Part shown: positions 13,883 to 54,303 of the stretch, in pieces | How positions within the stretch are numbered: the first letter of the stretch is position 1 | Layout: every line of letters starts with the position of its first letter | Virus genome (UHGV): UHGV-1558314 | DNA: 64,000 nucleotides | Strand: one strand, 5' to 3' | DNA from: a virus | Translations under genes and position numbers: made by a program | The notes under the pieces: model-generated | Database searches by the model: none | Seen by the model: the letters and a program-made list of their open reading frames with translations, nothing else | What the model was told of the DNA's origin: nothing

Positions 13883-15265
13883 TTACAGTGAGTTTATAAT
13901 TTTGATAAAGTCTGTTACAATGTTTGTATGCAACTCAATGAGATAGTTGTCTTGTAATGTCATAAGCTCATCAAGTTCATCTACACTTAATGACTTGAAG
14001 ACTTCTGCACAATGCTTGGCATTTTTGATGTGTGCGACTTTATGATACTTGATAAAGTCAGGACACACACAATTATTCACGTACATACAAGGCAAGCCTG
14101 CAAGCATTGATTCAGTTGCTCTGAATGTAATTGCGTTGCATTGTTTCATATTCTCTTCACACACAATGTATGCAAAGTCGAACTGCGACAAGTATGTTAA
14201 CATGTCAAAATACTTGATTGTGCCATTATAGACATGTGGCATATCAATGTCGATATTGCCGACAACATGAGTTTCGATGTCTGCGCAGCCAAGCAAATCA
14301 ATGACTTCTTGTTTGCGTTCAGCGCACATGTCATTCCAAGCAACCATCGGCATTGCAGTAGTCAACTTGCCTGATTGCAATTTTGCTAAACGTTTTTCGT
14401 TATGTGATGCATACAATGGAATGCCTTCAAGTCTTGCATGCTGAATTGTGTTGACATTGATTTCTGTCAGCATTGACAACGCATTATGCATGTTCTGTGC
14501 TTGTGTGACAACTGTCATCTTTTTGCAGCGCAATCTAAAGTTTGCAATGTGTGGCACGAGTCGTAAATCATACCACAGCCATACAATGTCACCCTTCCAT
14601 GACTCAATAAGCTGCTTGTGCTGTTTGTAGATGACTGACTGACTCATCAAGTCATTCATTGCTGAGCATACAATGTACAACACACCATATTTGTCAATTG
14701 AGTGCTGCACATAGTCAACTGAGCAGCATAGCACATCTTTGTCGAAAAGTTTTGGGTCATGCACTTCTGCATCATCTACAATAAGATGTGCCTTGTATTG
14801 ATGCTGCTTTGTTGCATCAATGATGCGAGCAATTGCAAAGCATTCTCTACTTTGAATGTCTGTCTTATCTTGTCGTGGTTGGTCTTGTGTTCGTACAGGA
14901 TATGCAGGCTTAAGTATTACAGGCACAAAATGTGTTTTTGCAGAATATGGTGCATCTACTGCAGCAAACTCCGCGTTGCATCGTTGTGAATGCAGATGTC
15001 GTGCATATGATTGCAACAATTCATGAATCATTGCAATGTACTCTTTCAATTCAAACAGCTCGTGTACAGTTGCGTTTGTTATGTCGACTACGACAGTTTG
15101 TCGCACAATTGGATACACACAAATAACGTAATCATTATATGATAGTGGAATGCCTATAAATGCTGAGCATCTGTTTCGAAGCCATGCAATGCAATCAGCG
15201 TCAAACACAATTTCATATTGCTGCTGCAAAGCATTTAATTGCGCTATAATCAAATCATTGTGCAT
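13883..15265 (-). CDS. GT-B fold glycosyltransferase (GT1/GT4-like)
   Basis: C-terminal FAYIVCEENMKQCNAITFRATESMLAGLPCMYVN resembles the E-x7-E / EAMA-G-P donor-binding motif. Confidence 0.45.
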   Translation of the reverse strand: MHNDLIIAQLNALQQQYEIVFDADCIAWLRNRCSAFIGIPLSYNDYVICVYPIVRQTVVVDITNATVHELFELKEYIAMIHELLQSYARHLHSQRCNAEFAAVDAPYSAKTHFVPVILKPAYPVRTQDQPRQDKTDIQSRECFAIARIIDATKQHQYKAHLIVDDAEVHDPKLFDKDVLCCSVDYVQHSIDKYGVLYIVCSAMNDLMSQSVIYKQHKQLIESWKGDIVWLWYDLRLVPHIANFRLRCKKMTVVTQAQNMHNALSMLTEINVNTIQHARLEGIPLYASHNEKRLAKLQSGKLTTAMPMVAWNDMCAERKQEVIDLLGCADIETHVVGNIDIDMPHVYNGTIKYFDMLTYLSQFDFAYIVCEENMKQCNAITFRATESMLAGLPCMYVNNCVCPDFIKYHKVAHIKNAKHCAEVFKSLSVDELDELMTLQDNYLIELHTNIVTDFIKIINSL

Positions 15266-15289: not shown

Positions 15290-15405
15290 AATATATTGTA
15301 CAACATGTATTGAGCTTTTGCACAACATATGTTGTTAAAATATCATCATTGTACAACATAAAGCGCATATTTGCACGTTGTGTTGCTAAAAATATTGTTA
15401 TTGTA
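15290..15405 (-). promoter_or_regulatory. cluster of three TTGTACA(A/C) boxes upstream of gene 13883..15265
   Basis: attgtacaacatg, cattgtacaacat, ttattgtacacaa within ~110 bp. Confidence 0.4.
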
Positions 15406-25282: not shown

Positions 25283-25322
25283 TTTATGATATTGTTAAGA
25301 TATCTACAAAAAGCAATGCACT

Positions 25323-25619
25323 CTACAAAAAGCAATGCACCATAAAACCCAAGAACATAATTATTGCAGGCTGCATGATGCAATACATAAAGAACTGTGC
25401 AGCAATCGGCAATTCATTGAACTTGTTGACTGTGTCATGATTCTTGAACAATGCCAGTACAAATGATATCCCAATTGCATGCTTAAGCGATAACGCAGTC
25501 AATGCGGGCCACACAGGCATCACAAACCACTCCCAGAAGTTCATAATAATGCAGCCATTCAGAATATAGCCTAACAGCATGAACATAATGCATGCAACAG
25601 TTGTCAGAAAGTTTTTCAT
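25323..25619 (-). CDS. small membrane protein (holin-like topology; speculative)
   Basis: 98 aa, about three hydrophobic helices. Confidence 0.4.
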   Translation of the reverse strand: MKNFLTTVACIMFMLLGYILNGCIIMNFWEWFVMPVWPALTALSLKHAIGISFVLALFKNHDTVNKFNELPIAAQFFMYCIMQPAIIMFLGFMVHCFL

Positions 25620-27950: not shown

Positions 27951-28015
27951 TGTTGTAGAGGTTTGTATACTATATTGATATATGATAATTGTACTACAAA
28001 TTTATCAAATTTGCA

Positions 28016-28133
28016 CTGATTTAATATATAATATGTCAATAAATTTCACATATAAAGTCTTTTCGCTTATGAAAACTACTCAACTCTGGTTTGAACGCCA
28101 GCAGTCAATCGCGGGGGGGCTCTTCGTGACACA
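28016..28133 (+). repeat. promoter/leader module, copy A (inverted partner at 31048..31160)
   Basis: About 113-118 bp near-identical to the reverse complement of 31048..31160, with 2-3 mismatches/indels by eye in the upstream part; contains ATG 28069 and G7 tract. Confidence 0.8.
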
Positions 28134-28185
28134 GGCATGCGCATATACGTGCGTGACAATGCTGATAACATTGTTAATGGGCTAA
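28069..28185 (+). CDS. leader ORF (MKTTQLWFERQQSIAGG...) containing a G7 tract; overlaps 28137..28769 in the -1 frame
   Basis: ATG 28069; G7 at 28113-28119; stop at 28185. The frame of 28137..28769 is open from 28095 (TPAVNRGGALRDTGMRIY...). Confidence 0.4.
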   Translation: MKTTQLWFERQQSIAGGLFVTQACAYTCVTMLITLLMG

Positions 28186-28769
28186 CTTGCTATTTGCACT
28201 GTATTGAAACAGGTCGAACACTTCAAAGAGACTTGCACACAAGCAATAATGGTGATGGCGTCACATTTTACATAACTGGTGATGACTATAAGCAATTAGT
28301 CGGCTCAACAAAAGACGCACAATTTTATCTTATTGACACGCCTGATGCTGCAGATATGTCTTGGTCATCTGCAGCATTTACACTTAGATATGGCGCAGAT
28401 ATAGTTAACAACACACTAAATGTCAATATTGAAGCGTTCAAATCATGCGAAGTAACAATAACTAACAGTGGCAATACATGCAGTTGCACCGCAATGCTTG
28501 AATCTGCATTGCCAGTGGCAATTAAACTGTCAACAATTTGCAATACATCAGTAGCATCTAATGTCGATGTGTCAGTTAACATAGCTGCAAATAGCTTGAC
28601 TGCTAATTTTAGAGTTGGCAATAGCTTATCTGCAAAATTGACGCATGTCGGCATATGGTCTATTGCTAATGCTTCTTATGTTTCACCAATATATGAGGGT
28701 GCTATAATTGTGAAAACACTGAACGACATATTTCACGTGTTCATAACAGATAAGACAACACTTGGCTAA
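28137..28769 (+). CDS. cassette protein 1 (210 aa), Ser/Thr/Asn/Val-rich; function unknown
   Basis: ORF on the rare plus strand, directly after conserved leader copy 1. Confidence 0.55.
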   Translation: MRIYVRDNADNIVNGLTCYLHCIETGRTLQRDLHTSNNGDGVTFYITGDDYKQLVGSTKDAQFYLIDTPDAADMSWSSAAFTLRYGADIVNNTLNVNIEAFKSCEVTITNSGNTCSCTAMLESALPVAIKLSTICNTSVASNVDVSVNIAANSLTANFRVGNSLSAKLTHVGIWSIANASYVSPIYEGAIIVKTLNDIFHVFITDKTTLG

Positions 28770-28804
28770 GTGTACATATCTTACAACATTCAAACATATA
28801 GCAT

Positions 28805-28858
28805 ATGAAAACTCCACAATTTTGGTTTGAGCGTCAACAAGGGCTAGCGGGGGGGCTC
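28805..28858 (+). repeat. diverged third copy of the leader module
   Basis: atgaaaactccacaattttggtttgagcgtcaacaagggctagcgggggggctc versus copy A; upstream part not conserved. Confidence 0.6.
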
Positions 28859-28861
28859 TAA
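28805..28861 (+). CDS. leader ORF copy 2 (MKTPQFWFERQQGLAGGL*) with G7 tract
   Basis: ATG 28805; G7 at 28849-28855; stop TAA at 28859-28861; about 75 percent nt identity to leader copy 1. Confidence 0.3.
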   Translation: MKTPQFWFERQQGLAGGL

Positions 28862-28898: not shown

Positions 28899-29327
28899 TT
28901 GTACAACTTTGGCACTACTGAAACAATGGCGATACAAGGTACAATATCGCTTGACAATGTCACAGTTAACATACCAACGTCAGGCTTTCCTATCAAAATG
29001 ATGGAATGCCGCGGTGGTGAAACTCATGCAATTGGTGCGTTAATGATGCCAAAAGCTTATGACTACTCAAACTTTGCTGCAAAAATTGGTTTTGGCTGCT
29101 ATGCAGCAGATGGTCGTGGCACTGGCAACGTTTACAACATCAATGTGTATGCCAACATTAACAACACAAGCCCTGGTGGTAATCCCATACTGTTAACTTC
29201 TATGGCATGGCAATATCCATTAGGCGTTGGTGATAAGCTTACATTGCCAATGTCAAATCCATCTGTCAAAGTTAACAATGGAGATATCGTGTCAATCATA
29301 CTTAAGAATGCAAGGAAAGTCAGCTAA
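28899..29327 (+). CDS. cassette protein 2 (142 aa; ATG start probably at 28926)
   Basis: ORF-track start is TTG at 28899; in-frame ATG at 28926 (MAIQGTISLD...). Frame is +1 relative to leader copy 2. Confidence 0.5.
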   Translation: MYNFGTTETMAIQGTISLDNVTVNIPTSGFPIKMMECRGGETHAIGALMMPKAYDYSNFAAKIGFGCYAADGRGTGNVYNINVYANINNTSPGGNPILLTSMAWQYPLGVGDKLTLPMSNPSVKVNNGDIVSIILKNARKVS

Positions 29328-29822: not shown

Positions 29823-30017
29823 ATGTTTCGATGTTTTAAGTTATGCAATGTGACATGAAAGCAACACTGCAAACTTTTCATCGAATGCAATGTCACCTAC
29901 GTTATAACAAGAGATTGAGCCAGATATGTGACCCCCCCAATTCAATTTGAATGTCATAAAGCTTATGAGTTTGTAAATGTTTGTTTTGTTTATATATTTT
30001 GACTGCCCATATGTACA

Positions 30018-30094
30018 TATCAAAACAACATCTTAGTTGTTTTGCATCTTGCATCAAAACAACATCTTAGTTGTTTTGCATCTTGCATCAAAAC
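30018..30094. repeat. tandem direct repeat, 34-bp unit x2.3, each unit with a 9-bp-stem hairpin
   Basis: tatcaaaacaacatcttagttgttttgcatcttg / catcaaaacaacatcttagttgttttgcatcttg / catcaaaac; internal inverted repeat caaaacaac-atctta-gttgttttg. Confidence 0.8.
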
Positions 30095-30269
30095 TCATAG
30101 GCATTGCATTCAAAGATGAAGATTTTACAGCAGACATTGCACTTGATAACGCGTCATTTTATGATGGCCAAACTGCATGGCTAACTGGAAAGCTTCTGGC
30201 AGCATTGTGTTAAGTATAAAACAGTTACATTGAAAGCTAACACAACAGTAAACATCGCCATTTAATGCA

Positions 30270-30315
30270 CATCAAAAACTCCACTGAACAATTAAGTTCA
30301 GTGGAGTTTTTGATG
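30270..30315. terminator. bidirectional hairpin terminator downstream of gene 30332..30985
   Basis: catcaaaaactccactgaac-aattaa-gttcagtggagtttttgatg; stem flanked by A5/T5 so either strand reads hairpin plus U-tract. Shares core CTCCACTGA with the 29352 hairpin. Confidence 0.6.
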
Positions 30316-30331
30316 TGTAGTGTGCAAAATA

Positions 30332-30985: not shown

Positions 30986-31047
30986 AGTCGCATATGCAGC
31001 TTCAAGTAGTGAACCATCTGCTTTGTTGATAGTGCCGCTGATAATAG

Positions 31048-31160
31048 TGTCACGAAGAGCCCCCCCGCGATTGACTGCTGGCGTTCAAACCAGAGTTGAG
31101 TAGTTTTCATAAGCGAAAAGACTTTTTGTATGTGAAATTTATTGACATATTATATATCAG
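31048..31160 (-). repeat. promoter/leader module, copy B (inverted partner of 28016..28133)
   Basis: Reverse complement reads ctgatatataatatgtcaataaatttcacatacaaaaagtcttttcgcttATGaaaactactcaactctggtttgaacgccagcagtcaatcgcgggggggctcttcgtgaca. Confidence 0.8.
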
Positions 31161-42446: not shown

Positions 42447-44057
42447 TCAACATTCTACATACGAGCCATCAGTGTTTTCAACAAGCACTTTGATGCTCAA
42501 GCCCACATCTGTGCCTTGCTGACTTCTTATCAATGGCACAATGTTTTTTGATTGTGGTGCAATGTTGCCCATATTGTCAATGTGCTCGTCATTGCCAATA
42601 AACTGTACATCCACTGATTTGATGACATCAAGCTCTTCAAGTTTTGCAATTGCAGCAGAACGACTAACGAATGTCGATGCATTTGACCATGAGTCTTCTA
42701 CAAATGTTTTTGCAGCATCAAGCAATTGCTGCTTGACGTCTTCTATATTTTGCAGTACTGCGGTCTTTTTGACAAGAATGAGCATCTGATAAAATTCAAG
42801 TTGCACAGTGTCAAATTGTACATCAGTTAGCAGCACATAGTCACCAGTGTTTTCAATAGCATTGTTCAGATATTGTCTATCTATAGAGTCAATCGTAAAT
42901 TCTGCTATTGGCAATGACCAGTAGTCATACACTATTGAGCCTGCTTTGACATACTTGTCTGCAATGTTGGGCACCAGTACAACATGAATTGTCTGAGTCT
43001 CTGTATTTGACCAGACATCAAGTATCTTATACTGGCCAAAACGTGACATGAATGCTCTGATTGAATCTGCTGAGTGCAACACAAGTGCCCTGTTAATTGA
43101 GCCTGCATGTGAACGTATCGATTCGATGTCTTCACCATTGTAACCACCTACAATGTCTGTCAACTGTTCAATGACTAATACACCCTTTGGGCTTACAGCA
43201 GTAGTGTTTGCATCATACATGCCATTGACCCATTCAAATGTTGCATCATTGTCAATCAAAATGTTTCCTGCATAGCCCTCACATGCAGTGTATTCTACAT
43301 TGACGACTGCATTTTGTGCAGGAATTTGACCAGCAGTACCATTGCCAAACACAATCTGTAGTTTGCCATCATATGACCAGCGTTCAATGTACCCCTTGCT
43401 GTATCGGTCCATTTCATCAAACCCTGCATAGCAAGTCCACAGCTCATTGCCAACTGTGACAGTCAATGAATCCTCAGACACAATCAAGTTGCGCTCTTCG
43501 ATAGTGAATGTTGTCATTGACTCACCATCAGAAATATATTGCTGAGACTTGCGTTCACCTTGTCTAACTGCGAATTCATATCGTACACCCGTCAACTCAT
43601 TGTTGATGTTGAGTTGCGCAAAGTCTTGATGCATGTCGATGTAGTACATCAGCGAGTTCTCTTTGCATTTAATTGCAGCATATCGCTTAATGAACACAGT
43701 CGGGCCAAGCTCTTTAACTGCGTCATATGAAAAACTTAATGCAATTTTGCCTGATGCTGCAATGCCACCAACACATTTGTAGCATGCAAGCTGCGCAAGA
43801 CCTCGTACAGATGCAGTTTGTTCTGCAGTAAGCAAGTTGTTTTCTTTTGTGCCTACTACAATTTGCGTAAAGATGAGTGACGCAAGTTCTCTGAAACTCT
43901 GAACAAGAATTCCAAAAATTGTATATTTGCCATACTGCTTCTTTGTAGAGTTCAGCAAATTCTGCAGCCAAGTATCTATAGACTGTGACACGCCTGAATA
44001 TGACATTTGCATTTTCTGCATCCATGTCATATTGTCACGAGTGTTATTTGTGCGCAT
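42447..44057 (-). CDS. hypothetical protein, probable virion protein (start trimmed to ATG at 44057)
   Basis: ORF-track N-terminus (to 44159) reads through a 30-bp tandem DNA repeat (CAHSKRxIL x2); first plausible ATG downstream is M35 at 44057. Confidence 0.45.
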   Translation of the reverse strand: MRTNNTRDNMTWMQKMQMSYSGVSQSIDTWLQNLLNSTKKQYGKYTIFGILVQSFRELASLIFTQIVVGTKENNLLTAEQTASVRGLAQLACYKCVGGIAASGKIALSFSYDAVKELGPTVFIKRYAAIKCKENSLMYYIDMHQDFAQLNINNELTGVRYEFAVRQGERKSQQYISDGESMTTFTIEERNLIVSEDSLTVTVGNELWTCYAGFDEMDRYSKGYIERWSYDGKLQIVFGNGTAGQIPAQNAVVNVEYTACEGYAGNILIDNDATFEWVNGMYDANTTAVSPKGVLVIEQLTDIVGGYNGEDIESIRSHAGSINRALVLHSADSIRAFMSRFGQYKILDVWSNTETQTIHVVLVPNIADKYVKAGSIVYDYWSLPIAEFTIDSIDRQYLNNAIENTGDYVLLTDVQFDTVQLEFYQMLILVKKTAVLQNIEDVKQQLLDAAKTFVEDSWSNASTFVSRSAAIAKLEELDVIKSVDVQFIGNDEHIDNMGNIAPQSKNIVPLIRSQQGTDVGLSIKVLVENTDGSYVEC

Positions 44058-44083
44058 ATCAGTTAATTTGTTTGTATATGTAT

Positions 44084-44160
44084 TCGAATGTGCACACATG
44101 AGAATAGGTCTCTTCGAATGTGCACATATGAGAATAAGTCTCTTCGAATATGCGCACAAA
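44084..44160. repeat. tandem direct repeat, 30-bp unit x2.5
   Basis: tcgaatgtgcacacatgagaataggtctct / tcgaatgtgcacatatgagaataagtctct / tcgaatatgcgcacaaa. Confidence 0.8.
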
Positions 44161-44188
44161 AAGAAGAGCTTGCATATGCAAGCTCTTC
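44153..44188 (-). terminator. rho-independent terminator after gene 44231..44614
   Basis: Palindrome gaagagcttgcatatgcaagctcttc followed on the minus strand by TTTTTGTGC. Confidence 0.55.
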
Positions 44189-44230
44189 CATCGCCAAAAC
44201 CTATCTAATTATGGAAACACCTCTGAAAGG

Positions 44231-44614
44231 TCAAATTATGAATCGTTTTGTGATTGGCCTGAAGTCTTCTGGCAAATCATAACGTTTTGTGATTGTTACA
44301 TCGCAAACAAGCAAATCGTTCATTTGTGTAGCAGATTTTGTAATGAAACAGTTGACAGACCATTCAAACAAATGCTGCGTAACGCTATAGTTTTTGAGTG
44401 CAGTAATGATATGTGATTGAATTGTTGCTGTCGAAATGCTTCTGTGATAAAGCGCAGCATCAATCTTCTCGACATCAAACATAATGTCAATTTCATTCAA
44501 AAAGACACGCAATGAATCTGTTGTTTGCAATTCATCATCTTCTTGAGTTTCTACAAAGTCAATACCTTGTAGCTCTTGTGACATTTGTGATGTATCGAAA
44601 CGATTATCTGACAT
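44231..44614 (-). CDS. hypothetical protein
   Basis: 127-aa ORF followed by a hairpin terminator. Confidence 0.45.
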   Translation of the reverse strand: MSDNRFDTSQMSQELQGIDFVETQEDDELQTTDSLRVFLNEIDIMFDVEKIDAALYHRSISTATIQSHIITALKNYSVTQHLFEWSVNCFITKSATQMNDLLVCDVTITKRYDLPEDFRPITKRFII

Positions 44615-46369: not shown

Positions 46370-46900
46370 TTATGAAAGCTGAGCCGTAGTGTACCAAGTT
46401 AAGTCAGATTCATTGTACGTCAATGCAATTGTAAGAGCTTGACCAAGTTGCTGTGACAATTGCTTACATGAATCAATGAATGCTTGCATATCTGCATATG
46501 ACTTTGTGTAGAACATGCCCCATTCTGTTGTATTGACTGCGACATTATGAACATCTGCAAGATGACAGACTTCTACAGATGATACATTAAAGTCTGAGCC
46601 ATCTTCATCAACATGATGCACATTGTTTGCGCACCAATACTGATACAAACGAGCTTTGTCTGATGCAGTCATGTCAAACTGCATGCGTTGAGCAATTGAT
46701 TCATCGACATTATCAATGAATTGCTTTGCTGACTTTGATTCAAGCATCGCATGATGCAGTGTATGATTTGCATGCCAGTCTGGAGTGCCGATTGCTACGC
46801 TAAGCTGATTTTCAAACACAAATTGTTGTGCTTGAGCTTCTTCGTAGCATTGTGTCCATGTCTTTGTCATGTTGTTTATCTTAAGTTTGTATATGTACAA
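46370..46900 (-). CDS. hypothetical protein
   Basis: 176-aa ORF. Confidence 0.45.
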   Translation of the reverse strand: MYIYKLKINNMTKTWTQCYEEAQAQQFVFENQLSVAIGTPDWHANHTLHHAMLESKSAKQFIDNVDESIAQRMQFDMTASDKARLYQYWCANNVHHVDEDGSDFNVSSVEVCHLADVHNVAVNTTEWGMFYTKSYADMQAFIDSCKQLSQQLGQALTIALTYNESDLTWYTTAQLS

Positions 46901-46987: not shown

Positions 46988-47884
46988 TTACAGTGTTCCG
47001 CAAAGCAATTCACGTAAATCCATGCCGGCTTGTGTACTGTACTGAGCAATAAGATTACGTTCTGAATCAGACATACTCCAATAAATCTTATGCAGAGCTC
47101 TACGAATAATAGTATGAATGCCAGATGTGCTACAATTGAACTTCTTTGCAAGTTCTGCATGAGTTAACAAATCAGCATCGCCAAGGCCATACACATGTGT
47201 GAGTACAAGCTTTTCATTTTGAGTGAGTTGTTCAAATGCTCTTTGCAGAATCTTTGTGATACGTTTGTGAGCATCTTCGATTTCAAGAACTTCTTGGCCT
47301 GTTTTGAAGTCTGACCTCAAATCATTCTGAACTGGTGACCATGCGTCACCATCTTTGTCAAGTGTAGTGTCATCCTTGCTGATGAATTGCTTGCCTTCAA
47401 GAGCTCTTTCATATGCTCCACGAATACCAGTAGATAATTGTTGACTTGTCAGATTGAGTTCGTCAAGCACATATTTCTTAATCCAAGGATATGCATATGT
47501 GCTAAACTTTGCTTCACGAACTCCTGCAGGCAATACGCCTTCTACGTAATTCTTGGCTGCTATTGACAATCCAAGATTGCCTGCTTGAATGACGTCATCA
47601 AATGGAACCGAGCGTTTGCCAGATGCGAACCATAAGCTTCGTGCAACTGATATGACCAATCTTAAACAAGATTTGATAAGAGCTTCACGATTTTCTTGAG
47701 TCTTCTTGAATCGAGTAACATCACAATATCGCTTTGCAGTAGCCAGCGATTTGACTTCTTCAGGAGTAAGCTCATTCTCCATCCTCATTTGCTTGAGCTC
47801 TTCCTTTGTGTATAGACGTTCTCTTGTGATTCTACCTACGTCCTTTACGTAGCCTTGATTGATTTGTGAATTTGAACCTGCCAT
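46988..47884 (-). CDS. sigma-70-family RNA polymerase sigma factor
   Basis: Region-2-like LRLVISVARSL...FDDVIQAGNLGLSIAAKNY; region-4 helix-turn-helix LTQNEKLVLTHVYGL...LTHAELAKKFNCSTSGIHTIIRRALHKI. Confidence 0.75.
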   Translation of the reverse strand: MAGSNSQINQGYVKDVGRITRERLYTKEELKQMRMENELTPEEVKSLATAKRYCDVTRFKKTQENREALIKSCLRLVISVARSLWFASGKRSVPFDDVIQAGNLGLSIAAKNYVEGVLPAGVREAKFSTYAYPWIKKYVLDELNLTSQQLSTGIRGAYERALEGKQFISKDDTTLDKDGDAWSPVQNDLRSDFKTGQEVLEIEDAHKRITKILQRAFEQLTQNEKLVLTHVYGLGDADLLTHAELAKKFNCSTSGIHTIIRRALHKIYWSMSDSERNLIAQYSTQAGMDLRELLCGTL

Positions 47885-49649: not shown

Positions 49650-50141
49650 TTATTCAGTCAAGCTTTGTTCAGAAAGTTCAATAATTTGTGTTTCGTATAG
49701 TCGTCTTAGTTCATCAAATCTTACACAGTTTTTGTCATACAGTGTAGCAAGACCTTGCAATGCTTGTTGTTTGCTTGTCCATACAATGTCAGCAGTCAAA
49801 TCCCATAACCACTTTTGTGCATAATAGAACTTCCAGTCATGCCAAAATGCATGTGCAGTAATTTGCTGTTCTTTATCATCAATGTAGATAAAGTGATGTG
49901 TTGGATTGCCACTTTCAAGATCTACAAATCTGAATGTCTTGTTTGCTACATGCTCAGCAATCCATTCATCAGATGCAATGACTTCTTGCAATGCGCATTG
50001 ATAATAGTAACGCTTTGCAATGTCAAAGTGACGAACAACTACGCCACGAAACAGTGTCCACAGCCAAGGCTCTTCTTCTGAACTTCTAATCCAGTAGACT
50101 TCTTGATTGACTGGCAGAAAATCGTAGTGAACGAGGTCCAT
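49650..50141 (-). CDS. hypothetical protein
   Basis: 163-aa ORF. Confidence 0.45.
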   Translation of the reverse strand: MDLVHYDFLPVNQEVYWIRSSEEEPWLWTLFRGVVVRHFDIAKRYYYQCALQEVIASDEWIAEHVANKTFRFVDLESGNPTHHFIYIDDKEQQITAHAFWHDWKFYYAQKWLWDLTADIVWTSKQQALQGLATLYDKNCVRFDELRRLYETQIIELSEQSLTE

Positions 50142-50738: not shown

Positions 50739-50810
50739 TATATTGTACAATATGCAAAGTGCTTTTGCACTTTGATGCAAAGTACTGCGTACACAACATG
50801 CAATGTATAA
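50739..50810 (-). promoter_or_regulatory. motif variant with inverted repeat CAAAGTGC-tttt-GCACTTTG, upstream of gene 50145..50723
   Basis: tatattgtacaatatgcaaagtgcttttgcactttgatgcaaagtactgcgtacacaacatgcaatg. Confidence 0.4.
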
Positions 50811-53800: not shown

Positions 53801-54303
53801 TGCCACCATTGAGCATCATTTGATGATGCATCATACCAGTACACCTTGCCATCTGGTGCAATGACCCAGTCTGCGTATGACAAAGCGTCTGTATGCAAAA
53901 TGTTGCAAAACGCAGGTTTGTTTGCATCTGAACAGAACTCATTGAATGCTGCAGCATCGACAACTTTTGCAGTACCTGCGTCATTTTGCGTAGCTGACCA
54001 ATCACTGCCAAACACTGTATTTATATCAGCAAGTGATGCGTACATAATGCGGTTGCCTCGATAGCCATCGAAGCCAGGCAAGCCACGGTCGCCAGTTTCA
54101 CCAATGCGACCCTTAAATAGGGGTGAATTCACAATTCTACTGAAATTGTAATTCAAAATTTCACACAACTCTGCATAAGATGTGACTTGAAGTTTTTTCA
54201 GTACAATTGGCTGTGCTTTATGTTCTGCAGACATGTTGTTCAGATATTTTGCTTTGTATATGTATTCGAGACTTTGTTGAGAATCGTCTGTCACTATGTG
54301 CAT
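50896..54303 (-). CDS. tail-fibre-like protein with short collagen-like Gly-X-Y run and C-terminal tandem Ig/BACON-like repeats
   Basis: GRIGETGDRGLPGFDGYRG (6 Gly-X-Y triplets); repeated units ...ADNVTVSITQAAQG / ...AQDVTAQVVQAAKG. Confidence 0.55.
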   Translation of the reverse strand: MHIVTDDSQQSLEYIYKAKYLNNMSAEHKAQPIVLKKLQVTSYAELCEILNYNFSRIVNSPLFKGRIGETGDRGLPGFDGYRGNRIMYASLADINTVFGSDWSATQNDAGTAKVVDAAAFNEFCSDANKPAFCNILHTDALSYADWVIAPDGKVYWYDASSNDAQWWQFTGLQLLTSDNDNLNVIITQIIEELIKTKYGGTIKSYAAMFNIAADGQPGAEIDNNYSNKHTGALSIGLESVPRYNNVDSSVILLAPSDTQIDGLGNANNKVAKPVMQILGNPYYYYDLTQRTLNRLDADKKNQLPGIDAFPHMLLQNDFNSGLVFGFASDDSHVKSFADLAALWQSYEGIRLRNHFTSAVNELDILSYANLKYDELFLAKGLDAEAKRESFIRAYKFAQLINQSYRIAALSDAGVVTDILTLTKQLLKLAATVDLQLMKLPGASVLGTDATGKVVDMLLSIFKSSDNWSSIIIDGANANKHLPTASAVKKLFNSIFDNFDAHLFERQYKHVFIDGSNHLAAGIGSSNTVLTYDGSGRLTEEAKKSAFNKDFAGSGYASTVSHSDHTHAEYAHKDDLTPPVYVESFDDHVPGTTAMQTLVPLPAYLNMPATVDILLDITVPFIVYGNGYASVKVDLSYRPVSGGAATQIDADKPSTCAVLPACLTSIDTTKTWSELQDACNELHYQAILRNVASSGVWPIYVIATPTFGGSANAVIFEPRVIASVVQYSTGVSTRPEIIVTSSMSLNAAGGSAEIAYQIRNGFAGAAVTAYATESWIHNVQVADDKITFDYDKTLQTTARTANIVLQYPTADNVAVLLTQAAKEATVINAEPLTINAAANGGSFTVNFSITNPIEGETLTVTAEGSGFVGEPAVNMSAGTIQFALDINTATATRNLYLRLSYMTADNVTVSITQAAQGVSMIIVEPMNAQLKSTDTQAQFEITVSNPIAGQQLSYEVLDNDGTFTDTNFEYDDNTGKGYLTIECDRNLTIEQRSCSVKFSHINAQDVTAQVVQAAKGVTTINITPASATTDDAAKTLNFNYEIVNPIDGESLTAVIVGNPGWLHDITITPSKTTPAIGEISMQVDELSYSDIDAFSRVAAFKCSYNTAQDVSVEVTQELHGIGSMIIEDTNKPFIVR

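Follow-up and report, generated by a model that had tools for sequence, protein, structure and literature searches.

Intergenic loci with variable numbers of tandem repeats (VNTRs) serve for strain typing in bacteria. In phages, short sites repeated at late promoters include the p4 sites at A3/A2b/A2c of phi29, the Ogr/Delta dyads near -55 in P2/P4, and the direct repeats of lambda CII. The late promoter of T4, TATAAATA, is a -10 element with no -35, and longer transcripts of the T4 genes e, soc, and 49 form a hairpin that encloses this promoter and masks the site of initiation. A report on Borg elements describes rapidly evolving intergenic tandem repeats (PMC9879509). A full-text literature search returned nothing on the phage group treated here, only general papers on VNTRs and on Borg tandem repeats.

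The locus compared here with these systems lies in a 64-kb stretch of DNA (the window) from an uncultured phage, and is read on the minus strand, since that strand carries almost all genes of the window. In minus-strand order, the stop codon of a 127-aa gene (44231), a hairpin with five T residues, the array, a 13-nt motif, and the ATG at 44057 follow one another:

44231..44614, minus strand: upstream gene of 127 aa (ORF list)
44158..44189, minus strand: intrinsic-terminator-like hairpin plus T5 (terminator scan, inverted repeat I4)
44083..44158, minus strand: 30-nt tandem repeat, 2.5 copies (Tandem Repeats Finder, shuffles, strain comparison)
44158-44129, minus strand: repeat unit 1, tgtgcgcatattcgaagagacttattctca
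44128-44099, minus strand: repeat unit 2, tatgtgcacattcgaagagacctattctca
44098-44083, minus strand: partial repeat unit 3, tgtgtgcacattcgaa
44070..44082, minus strand: promoter-like motif TACATATACAAAC (second exact copy, enrichment, invariance)
42447..44057, minus strand: baseplate-wedge gene, 536 aa, with ATG at 44057-44055 (MRTNNTRD...)

The array belongs to the variable-number tandem repeats, since every VNTR property that was checked was found in it, and it is inserted in a terminator-promoter junction of standard type. As in VNTRs and minisatellites, head-to-tail units of tens of bases lie in non-coding DNA, their number varies among strains, and arrays arise independently at the same gap in related genomes. 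Unlike typical VNTRs, it has 1.5-2.5 copies only, its core is more conserved than synonymous sites, and it exactly fills the interval from a terminator to a promoter-like motif. Like the activator and repressor arrays of phages, it places short repeated and conserved sites (cores variable in 0/49 columns) just upstream of a putative late-type promoter, adjoining 44070-44082, with a 30-bp spacing that approximates whole helical turns and with partly palindromic boxes. It departs from them in that the putative site was found at no other promoter in the 64-kb window or in IMG/VR contigs, including the one with the same 13-mer (46885-46897), and in that neither number (1.5 or 2.5 copies) nor phasing (29- or 30-nt units) is fixed.

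The resemblance to T4 is partial. The motif (CATATACAAA; GCATATAAATA in relatives) is A/T-rich and -10-like, reminiscent of the T4 late promoter, and it appears to lack a shared -35, no common sequence being seen 17 nt upstream of it in the window and relatives. However, it reads TACATATACAAAC in the window and GCATATAAATA or TACATATAAAAAG in relatives, not TATAAATA, and the sole sigma factor that the window shows (46988-47884) possesses sigma-70 regions 2 and 4 instead of being minimal and gp55-like. Complementary arms flank the promoter-like motif, as they do in genes e, soc, and 49, the 3' arm covering the AUG; a 5' arm upstream of the promoter and complementary to the initiation region was the sole hallmark of T4 masking found. 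Unlike those genes, this locus has a strong predicted terminator ahead of the 5' arm, and the pairing is not kept in all strains and relatives. The layout also resembles a terminator followed by a restart promoter in tail and baseplate gene clusters, with a GC-containing hairpin and T-run after the stop codon and then the motif; across the clade this terminator is conserved in structure, not sequence, and the spacer of the otherwise standard junction has received the repeat as an insertion.

Tandem Repeats Finder reported the array at 44083-44158 with a period of 30, 2.5 copies, 89% matches, 0 indels, and a score of 124, whereas 60 shuffles of the window that preserved its dinucleotides scored 71 at best (mean 50), so that its head-to-tail copies lie beyond chance. 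The sequence-only reading had described a 30-bp repeat in 2.5 copies located between a terminator and the real gene start, and both statements were borne out, the latter by the hairpin scan and the MRTN start; its range, 44084-44188, spans repeat plus hairpin, and its consensus is the plus-strand reading. Aligned in register, the units read TGTGCGCATATTCGAAGAGACTTATTCTCA, TATGTGCACATTCGAAGAGACCTATTCTCA, and TGTGTGCACATTCGAA, the first base of the array being the last T of the terminator T-run. Within each unit, a box in which purines and pyrimidines alternate (TGTGCRCAYAT) precedes the invariant core, TTCGAAGAGAC(Y)TATTCTCAT.

The 21-nt core had no copy in the 64-kb window besides the two in the array (0 expected), and a search of the window for the 14-nt box gave 18 matches versus 21 expected, which is the chance level. 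An exact-pattern scan of IMG/VR detected the unit core at the same locus of one relative only, and the 174.6-kb L012 contig of that collection carried it at no second place. A genome-wide regulon site was rejected on account of this uniqueness and the chance-level box matches. A restriction-site decoy was also rejected, as TTCGAA, GTGCAC, CATATG, and TGCGCA all occurred at the expected frequency in the window. No sigma-70-type promoter was predicted within the array on either strand, and a hand-picked plus-strand match, GTGCAC-N18-TCGAAT, was weak. For the locus, Rfam showed no family near the gathering score, the tRNA search found none, and megablast against known phage DNA gave no match. The distance from the last TTCGAA to the box at the start codon (40 nt) parallels one repeat unit (30 nt); judging from this arrangement, the array may derive from an old duplication that took in the gene start. 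A second minus-strand frame, 44059-44181, is open across hairpin and array and ends with a TGA that a single base separates from the true ATG (aacTGAtATG); it was taken as a chance occurrence, since it is lost in strains with 29-nt units.

The gene following the array had been called a large virion gene, and its product proved to match a baseplate wedge protein (phrog_219, E 1.5e-21). In tblastn, it matched features annotated 'baseplate wedge' in Tenacibaculum jumbo phages with 21-25% identity, and, in the same identity range, hypothetical proteins from Chryseobacterium and Sphingomonas PAU phages along with uncultured-phage records of 462-735 kb. By these similarities, the uncultured phage, with a genome of ~175 kb, is a distant relative of jumbo myophages, mostly of Bacteroidota. 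The 127-aa protein encoded upstream had no match in PHROG, Pfam, or PDB, although its gene is syntenic and present in all close relatives; PDB held no sequence relative of the wedge protein either.

The mechanically called ORF starts at TTG 44159, encodes 570 aa, and runs through the array; this TTG, within the T-run, is the only in-frame start for an extension in the window. Eleven homologues were found. Five sharing 54-80% identity begin exactly at MRTN, corresponding to ORF residue 35, and five sharing 96-98% identity have N-terminal extensions differing in length and sequence; other cluster members start 0, 14, 29, 34, 39, or 44 residues ahead of MRTN. One DNA unit is read as FEETIL in some strains and as HSKRPIL in others, and all the long extensions begin at an ATG within the terminator hairpin. 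Because distant homologues start at MRTN, the frame shifts between strains, and the extension begins in the terminator, the repeat is not translated, and the real protein is the 536-aa form starting MRTN; exactly this protein is recorded from a contig of 175,564 nt. That the array is instead translated as an N-terminal extension of the baseplate protein is scarcely credible. Gene callers did produce 550-580-aa versions of the protein in public collections, and one frame is open across the array in the window, but the frame, length, and sequence of the extension all differ among 96-98% identical strains, the DNA upstream of MRTN is unrelated in the homologues at 54-80% identity, and translation would have to begin within the terminator hairpin or, in the window, at the TTG of the T-run. 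The CAHSKR-repeat N-terminus, suspected from the sequence to be an artefact, thus turned out to be one, and the gene models can be corrected: public baseplate clusters carry spurious N-terminal extensions of 14-44 aa that spell out repeat and terminator.

The hairpin is a perfect 13+13 palindrome (44188-44163, GAAGAGCTTGCAT/ATGCAAGCTCTTC) followed on the minus strand by TTTTT (44162-44158), and lies 41 nt past the stop codon of the 127-aa gene (44231). It ranked first in the terminator scan of 40-50 kb, with an RNA dG of -22.3 kcal/mol (z -6.4), and it has the make-up of an intrinsic terminator, namely a 12-13 bp stem and T5 located 3' of a stop codon on the coding strand. A hairpin plus T-run occurs in the same gap of four relatives (L007, L008, L010, and L011) with a sequence that is not that of the window, the structure being kept despite the sequence change.

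The motif TACATATACAAAC (44082-44070) adjoins the last partial repeat, and the ATG is situated 12 nt further on. Exactly two exact copies were present in the window, 44070-44082 and 46885-46897, both on the minus strand, after a terminator, and 12-16 nt before an ATG. With up to two mismatches allowed, 10 matches were found versus 2.8 expected, a number reached in 0 of 100 shuffles. The top-enriched sense-strand intergenic 7-mers were TATACAA, ATATACA, and CATATAC (10-14 fold), and CATATA[AC]A gave 11 sense-strand matches, 6 of which fall in intergenic DNA (3.9% of the window), and 2 antisense matches. At the sister junction near 46.9 kb, a terminator is followed by a 33-nt spacer, the identical 13-mer, 16 nt, and an ATG, with no repeat module at the promoter (46885-46897). 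Relatives at 54-80% identity possess GCATAAATA, TACATATATC, GCATATAAATA, or TACATATAAAAAG between their own terminator and ATG, a CATATA-type motif being at the same place in L007-L011; the order of terminator and then CATATA motif is kept at this distance though the sequences differ. These findings point to TACATATACAAAC as the probable promoter of the baseplate gene, with a transcription start that we guess from the motif. No Shine-Dalgarno sequence was seen before the ATGs inspected, which in our own reading of the sequence fits the Bacteroidota-phage affinity. The comparison exposes a transcription grammar of the clade, consisting of a terminator, a spacer, a CATATA(C/A)AA motif, and a short leader without Shine-Dalgarno sequence.

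Other promoter-related elements were noted in the window. A one-mismatch copy of the 13-mer (TACATATACAAAG) is located at 54252-54264 on the minus strand, 39 nt inside the called start (54303) of a 1135-aa ORF, the true start of which may be further downstream since the copy falls inside the called ORF. A second promoter-like class was also exposed on the minus strand, GTGCAA-N17-TACAAT, usually ending in ..GCATGTTGTACAATA and unlike the CATATACAAA class at the baseplate gene. Its sites, all on the minus strand and often in tandem, are at 15295-15376, 27988-28016, 50742-50770, 5814, and 21852, with 4 exact matches versus 0.18 expected; the gap at 15.3 kb, directly upstream of the gene at 13883-15265, contains at least three -10-like copies. 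The sigma-70-family gene (46988-47884, minus strand; regions 2 and 4 by Pfam, phrog_351) is one operon upstream of the baseplate genes, with a terminator and the first TACATATACAAAC motif in between.

The locus was recovered from eight other contigs of the same species-level phage group. The window, L001, L002, L003, L012, and L013 have 2.5 copies, and L004, L005, and L006 have 1.5; it is the 1.5-copy form that is read out in P0014, the protein variant found most often (37 contigs). Protein-length classes follow the same division, 565 aa (including P0014) corresponding to 1.5 copies and 575/580 aa to 2.5 copies. Copy number thus varies between near-identical genomes, and the unit measures 29 or 30 nt among strains owing to a single T indel. 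The same box 1, TTTTGCGCGCAT, is shared by L004 (1.5 copies) and L013 (2.5 copies), and another box-1 type by L006 (1.5 copies) and the window (2.5 copies). Since one box-1 type occurs with different copy numbers, gain and loss are probably recurrent, or alleles recombine. The array, with its 1.5 or 2.5 units of 29 or 30 nt, offers a simple length marker for strains of this uncultured ~175 kb phage.

Constraint was counted over eight distinct sequences, with four-fold degenerate sites taken from both flanking genes, of which 45/122 (0.37) were variable. Variable columns at the locus were distributed as follows:

Hairpin plus T-run: 1/33
Box 1 (13 nt just after the T-run): 6/13
Cores TTCGAAGAGAC and TATTCTCAT plus the last TTCGAA: 0/49
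Motif to ATG: 0/28

The hairpin and the 37 nt that separate the ATG from the last TTCGAA were identical in all eight contigs, and the first box varies like neutral sites. In the sister spacer near 46.9 kb, ~7/33 columns (~0.2) were variable among five strains only, the stretch from motif to ATG being invariant there too. The core is thus more constrained than ordinary spacer, given 0/49 against 0.37 at four-fold sites and ~7/33 in the sister spacer; its invariance could also stem from recombinational homogenisation instead of selection. The number of units is not under constraint.

Outside the species-level group, L007 (80% aa identity) has a near-identical hairpin with no repeat, and L010 has no repeat. 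L008 and L011, relatives with ~55% protein identity, each carry an array of unrelated sequence in the same gap, upstream of the terminator: 19 nt x4.9 at 2722-2815 in L008, and 14 nt repeated at least 2.6 times at 4-39 in L011. Because unrelated arrays occur in the same and in other gaps, this phage group readily gains intergenic tandem duplications. With a single full unit in most strains and none in the nearest outgroup, the array as such can be regarded as dispensable, and it is young as well. Among the other gaps, L008 has a further array, 15 nt x3.1, one gap further up (2211-2256), and the window has tandem repeats at 30019-30094 and 25303-25340. The one at 30019-30094 is a perfect 34-nt x2.2 repeat in the largest intergenic gap (29823-30331), each unit with its own hairpin, AAAACAAC-taagat-GTTGTTTT.

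Taken together, the comparisons establish the element as a non-coding, copy-number-variable minisatellite between a conserved predicted terminator and a conserved promoter-like motif with a short leader. The predicted terminator would end the transcript of the 127-aa gene, and the motif would restart transcription for the baseplate-wedge gene, while 29-30-nt units are gained and lost between near-identical strains. As to function, we favour, with a likelihood we would put slightly short of even, the view that the repeated module is a DNA-level cis-element upstream of the promoter, probably bound by a protein at the core of ~20 nt. If transcription starts ~6 nt past the motif, which is a guess, the cores would be centred near -43 and -73; duplication would add a second putative site and would have at most a quantitative effect, tuning expression. 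That the module is not junk is argued from the core, which stays constant while synonymous sites and the first box drift. Against this, a regulator site is usually common to co-regulated promoters, and the core is unique to the locus; L007 has the same gene without any such module; and no candidate for the cognate DNA-binding protein emerged, the neighbouring small proteins being without family match. The phasing would not be strict, since a 1-nt indel in the unit and changes in copy number are tolerated, and multiplicity is probably not what matters, since copy number varies, the unit occurs at no other promoter, and L007 lacks the array. The earlier suggestion of a regulatory array therefore held in part: the array adjoins a promoter-like motif that is conserved, and its own cores vary far less than synonymous sites do, but its copy number varies freely, its unit is at no other promoter, and the closest outside relative is without it. 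Neutral debris, left by slippage or unequal recombination between the short direct boxes and tolerated without function in a non-coding gap, is unlikely but carries real weight: besides the differences in copy number and unit length between near-identical strains, it would account for the absence of the array from L007 and L010, for the unrelated arrays in this gap (L008 and L011) and in others, and for a unit found at no other place. The invariant cores, 0/49 compared with 0.37 at four-fold sites and ~0.2 in the sister spacer, are hard to square with it unless they were recently homogenised.

An effect at the RNA level is improbable. By this account, an array box would pair with the AUG on RNA that reads through the terminator and block translation, while transcripts begun at the promoter-like motif in the loop would lack the 5' arm and be translated. 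The arms are as follows:

44148..44160, minus strand: 5' arm TTTGTGCGCATAT, which is array box 1 (13-nt perfect inverted repeat I3)
44047..44059, minus strand: 3' arm ATATGCGCACAAA, which contains the start codon (inverted repeat I3)

The two arms are perfect 13-nt complements, the AUG is the partner of box 1 in the predicted minimum-free-energy fold, where boxes 2 and 3 pair with each other (z -7.6), and for 7 of the 8 strain variants the predicted pairing probability of the AUG is at least 0.85. L003 has a weakened box 1, and its box 3, changed to TGTGCATAT, takes over; P0014, the commonest haplotype, keeps the perfect complement; and in L010 and L011 the AUG also pairs with sequence just 5' of their own motif. 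However, the 3' arm is a fourth direct copy of the box, 40 nt past box 3, and since the boxes are near-palindromic the complementarity comes free, as does that of the CAT in the promoter motif, which trivially complements AUG. Within the region, variation is highest in the boxes, the invariant cores are not needed by the model, L012 loses the pairing, and L007 and L008 are without it. There is no covariation in the pairing, since the 3' arm is invariant in all close strains. A strong predicted terminator already stands ahead of the array, and there is no obvious earlier transcript class to silence, since the next upstream promoter has the same 13-mer. A combination of the two levels, in which the number of core sites (one or two) sets promoter strength and the boxes silence transcripts escaping the terminator, is quite improbable; if true, gain and loss of 30-nt units would tune the dosage of the baseplate wedge in natural populations. 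Replication iterons, a packaging site, or a mini CRISPR-like array would likewise be direct repeats in non-coding DNA, and several relatives' metagenomic contigs begin within ~165 nt of the gap, yet such an element is very improbable. No GC-skew inflection stood out at 2-kb resolution, on which ground a replication origin was rejected; there is no AT-rich unwinding region, replication and terminase genes are not nearby, and no Rfam family matched. The array is not CRISPR-like, because the whole 30-nt period repeats, 'spacers' included, instead of enclosing unique spacers. A genome end or packaging site was rejected by inference, as the contig breaks fall in a hairpin palindrome or a tandem array and other contigs run straight across the gap; short-read (de Bruijn) assemblers typically break at palindromes and tandem repeats.

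The significance of the repeat is modest: as a variable repeat it is real but rather ordinary, and it misleads gene callers. Should the core of the favoured cis-element prove to be a binding site, it would provide an entry point to late-gene regulation in this phage group.

Two further features of the window were observed away from this locus. A cassette of ~60-135 nt occurs three times, at 28024-28132 (plus strand), 31047-31157 (minus strand), and 28801-28859 (plus strand); two copies are 97% alike and mutually inverted, and the third is 76% alike. Each contains a short ORF start (MKTTQLWFERQQSIAGG or MKTPQFWFERQQGLAGG) and, after it, a run of G7, and precedes an unrelated ORF in another frame (28137-28769, plus; 28926-29327, plus; 30985-30332, minus), none of the three having a PHROG match. 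The cassette could be a shared promoter with a leader or an upstream ORF, or its G7 run could be where slippage or frameshifting occurs. In addition, GATC was present once in the whole window (at 49919) versus 176 expected, CTAG once versus 73 expected, and CATG 342 times versus 630 expected. Such strong avoidance of palindromes suggests pressure from host restriction systems.
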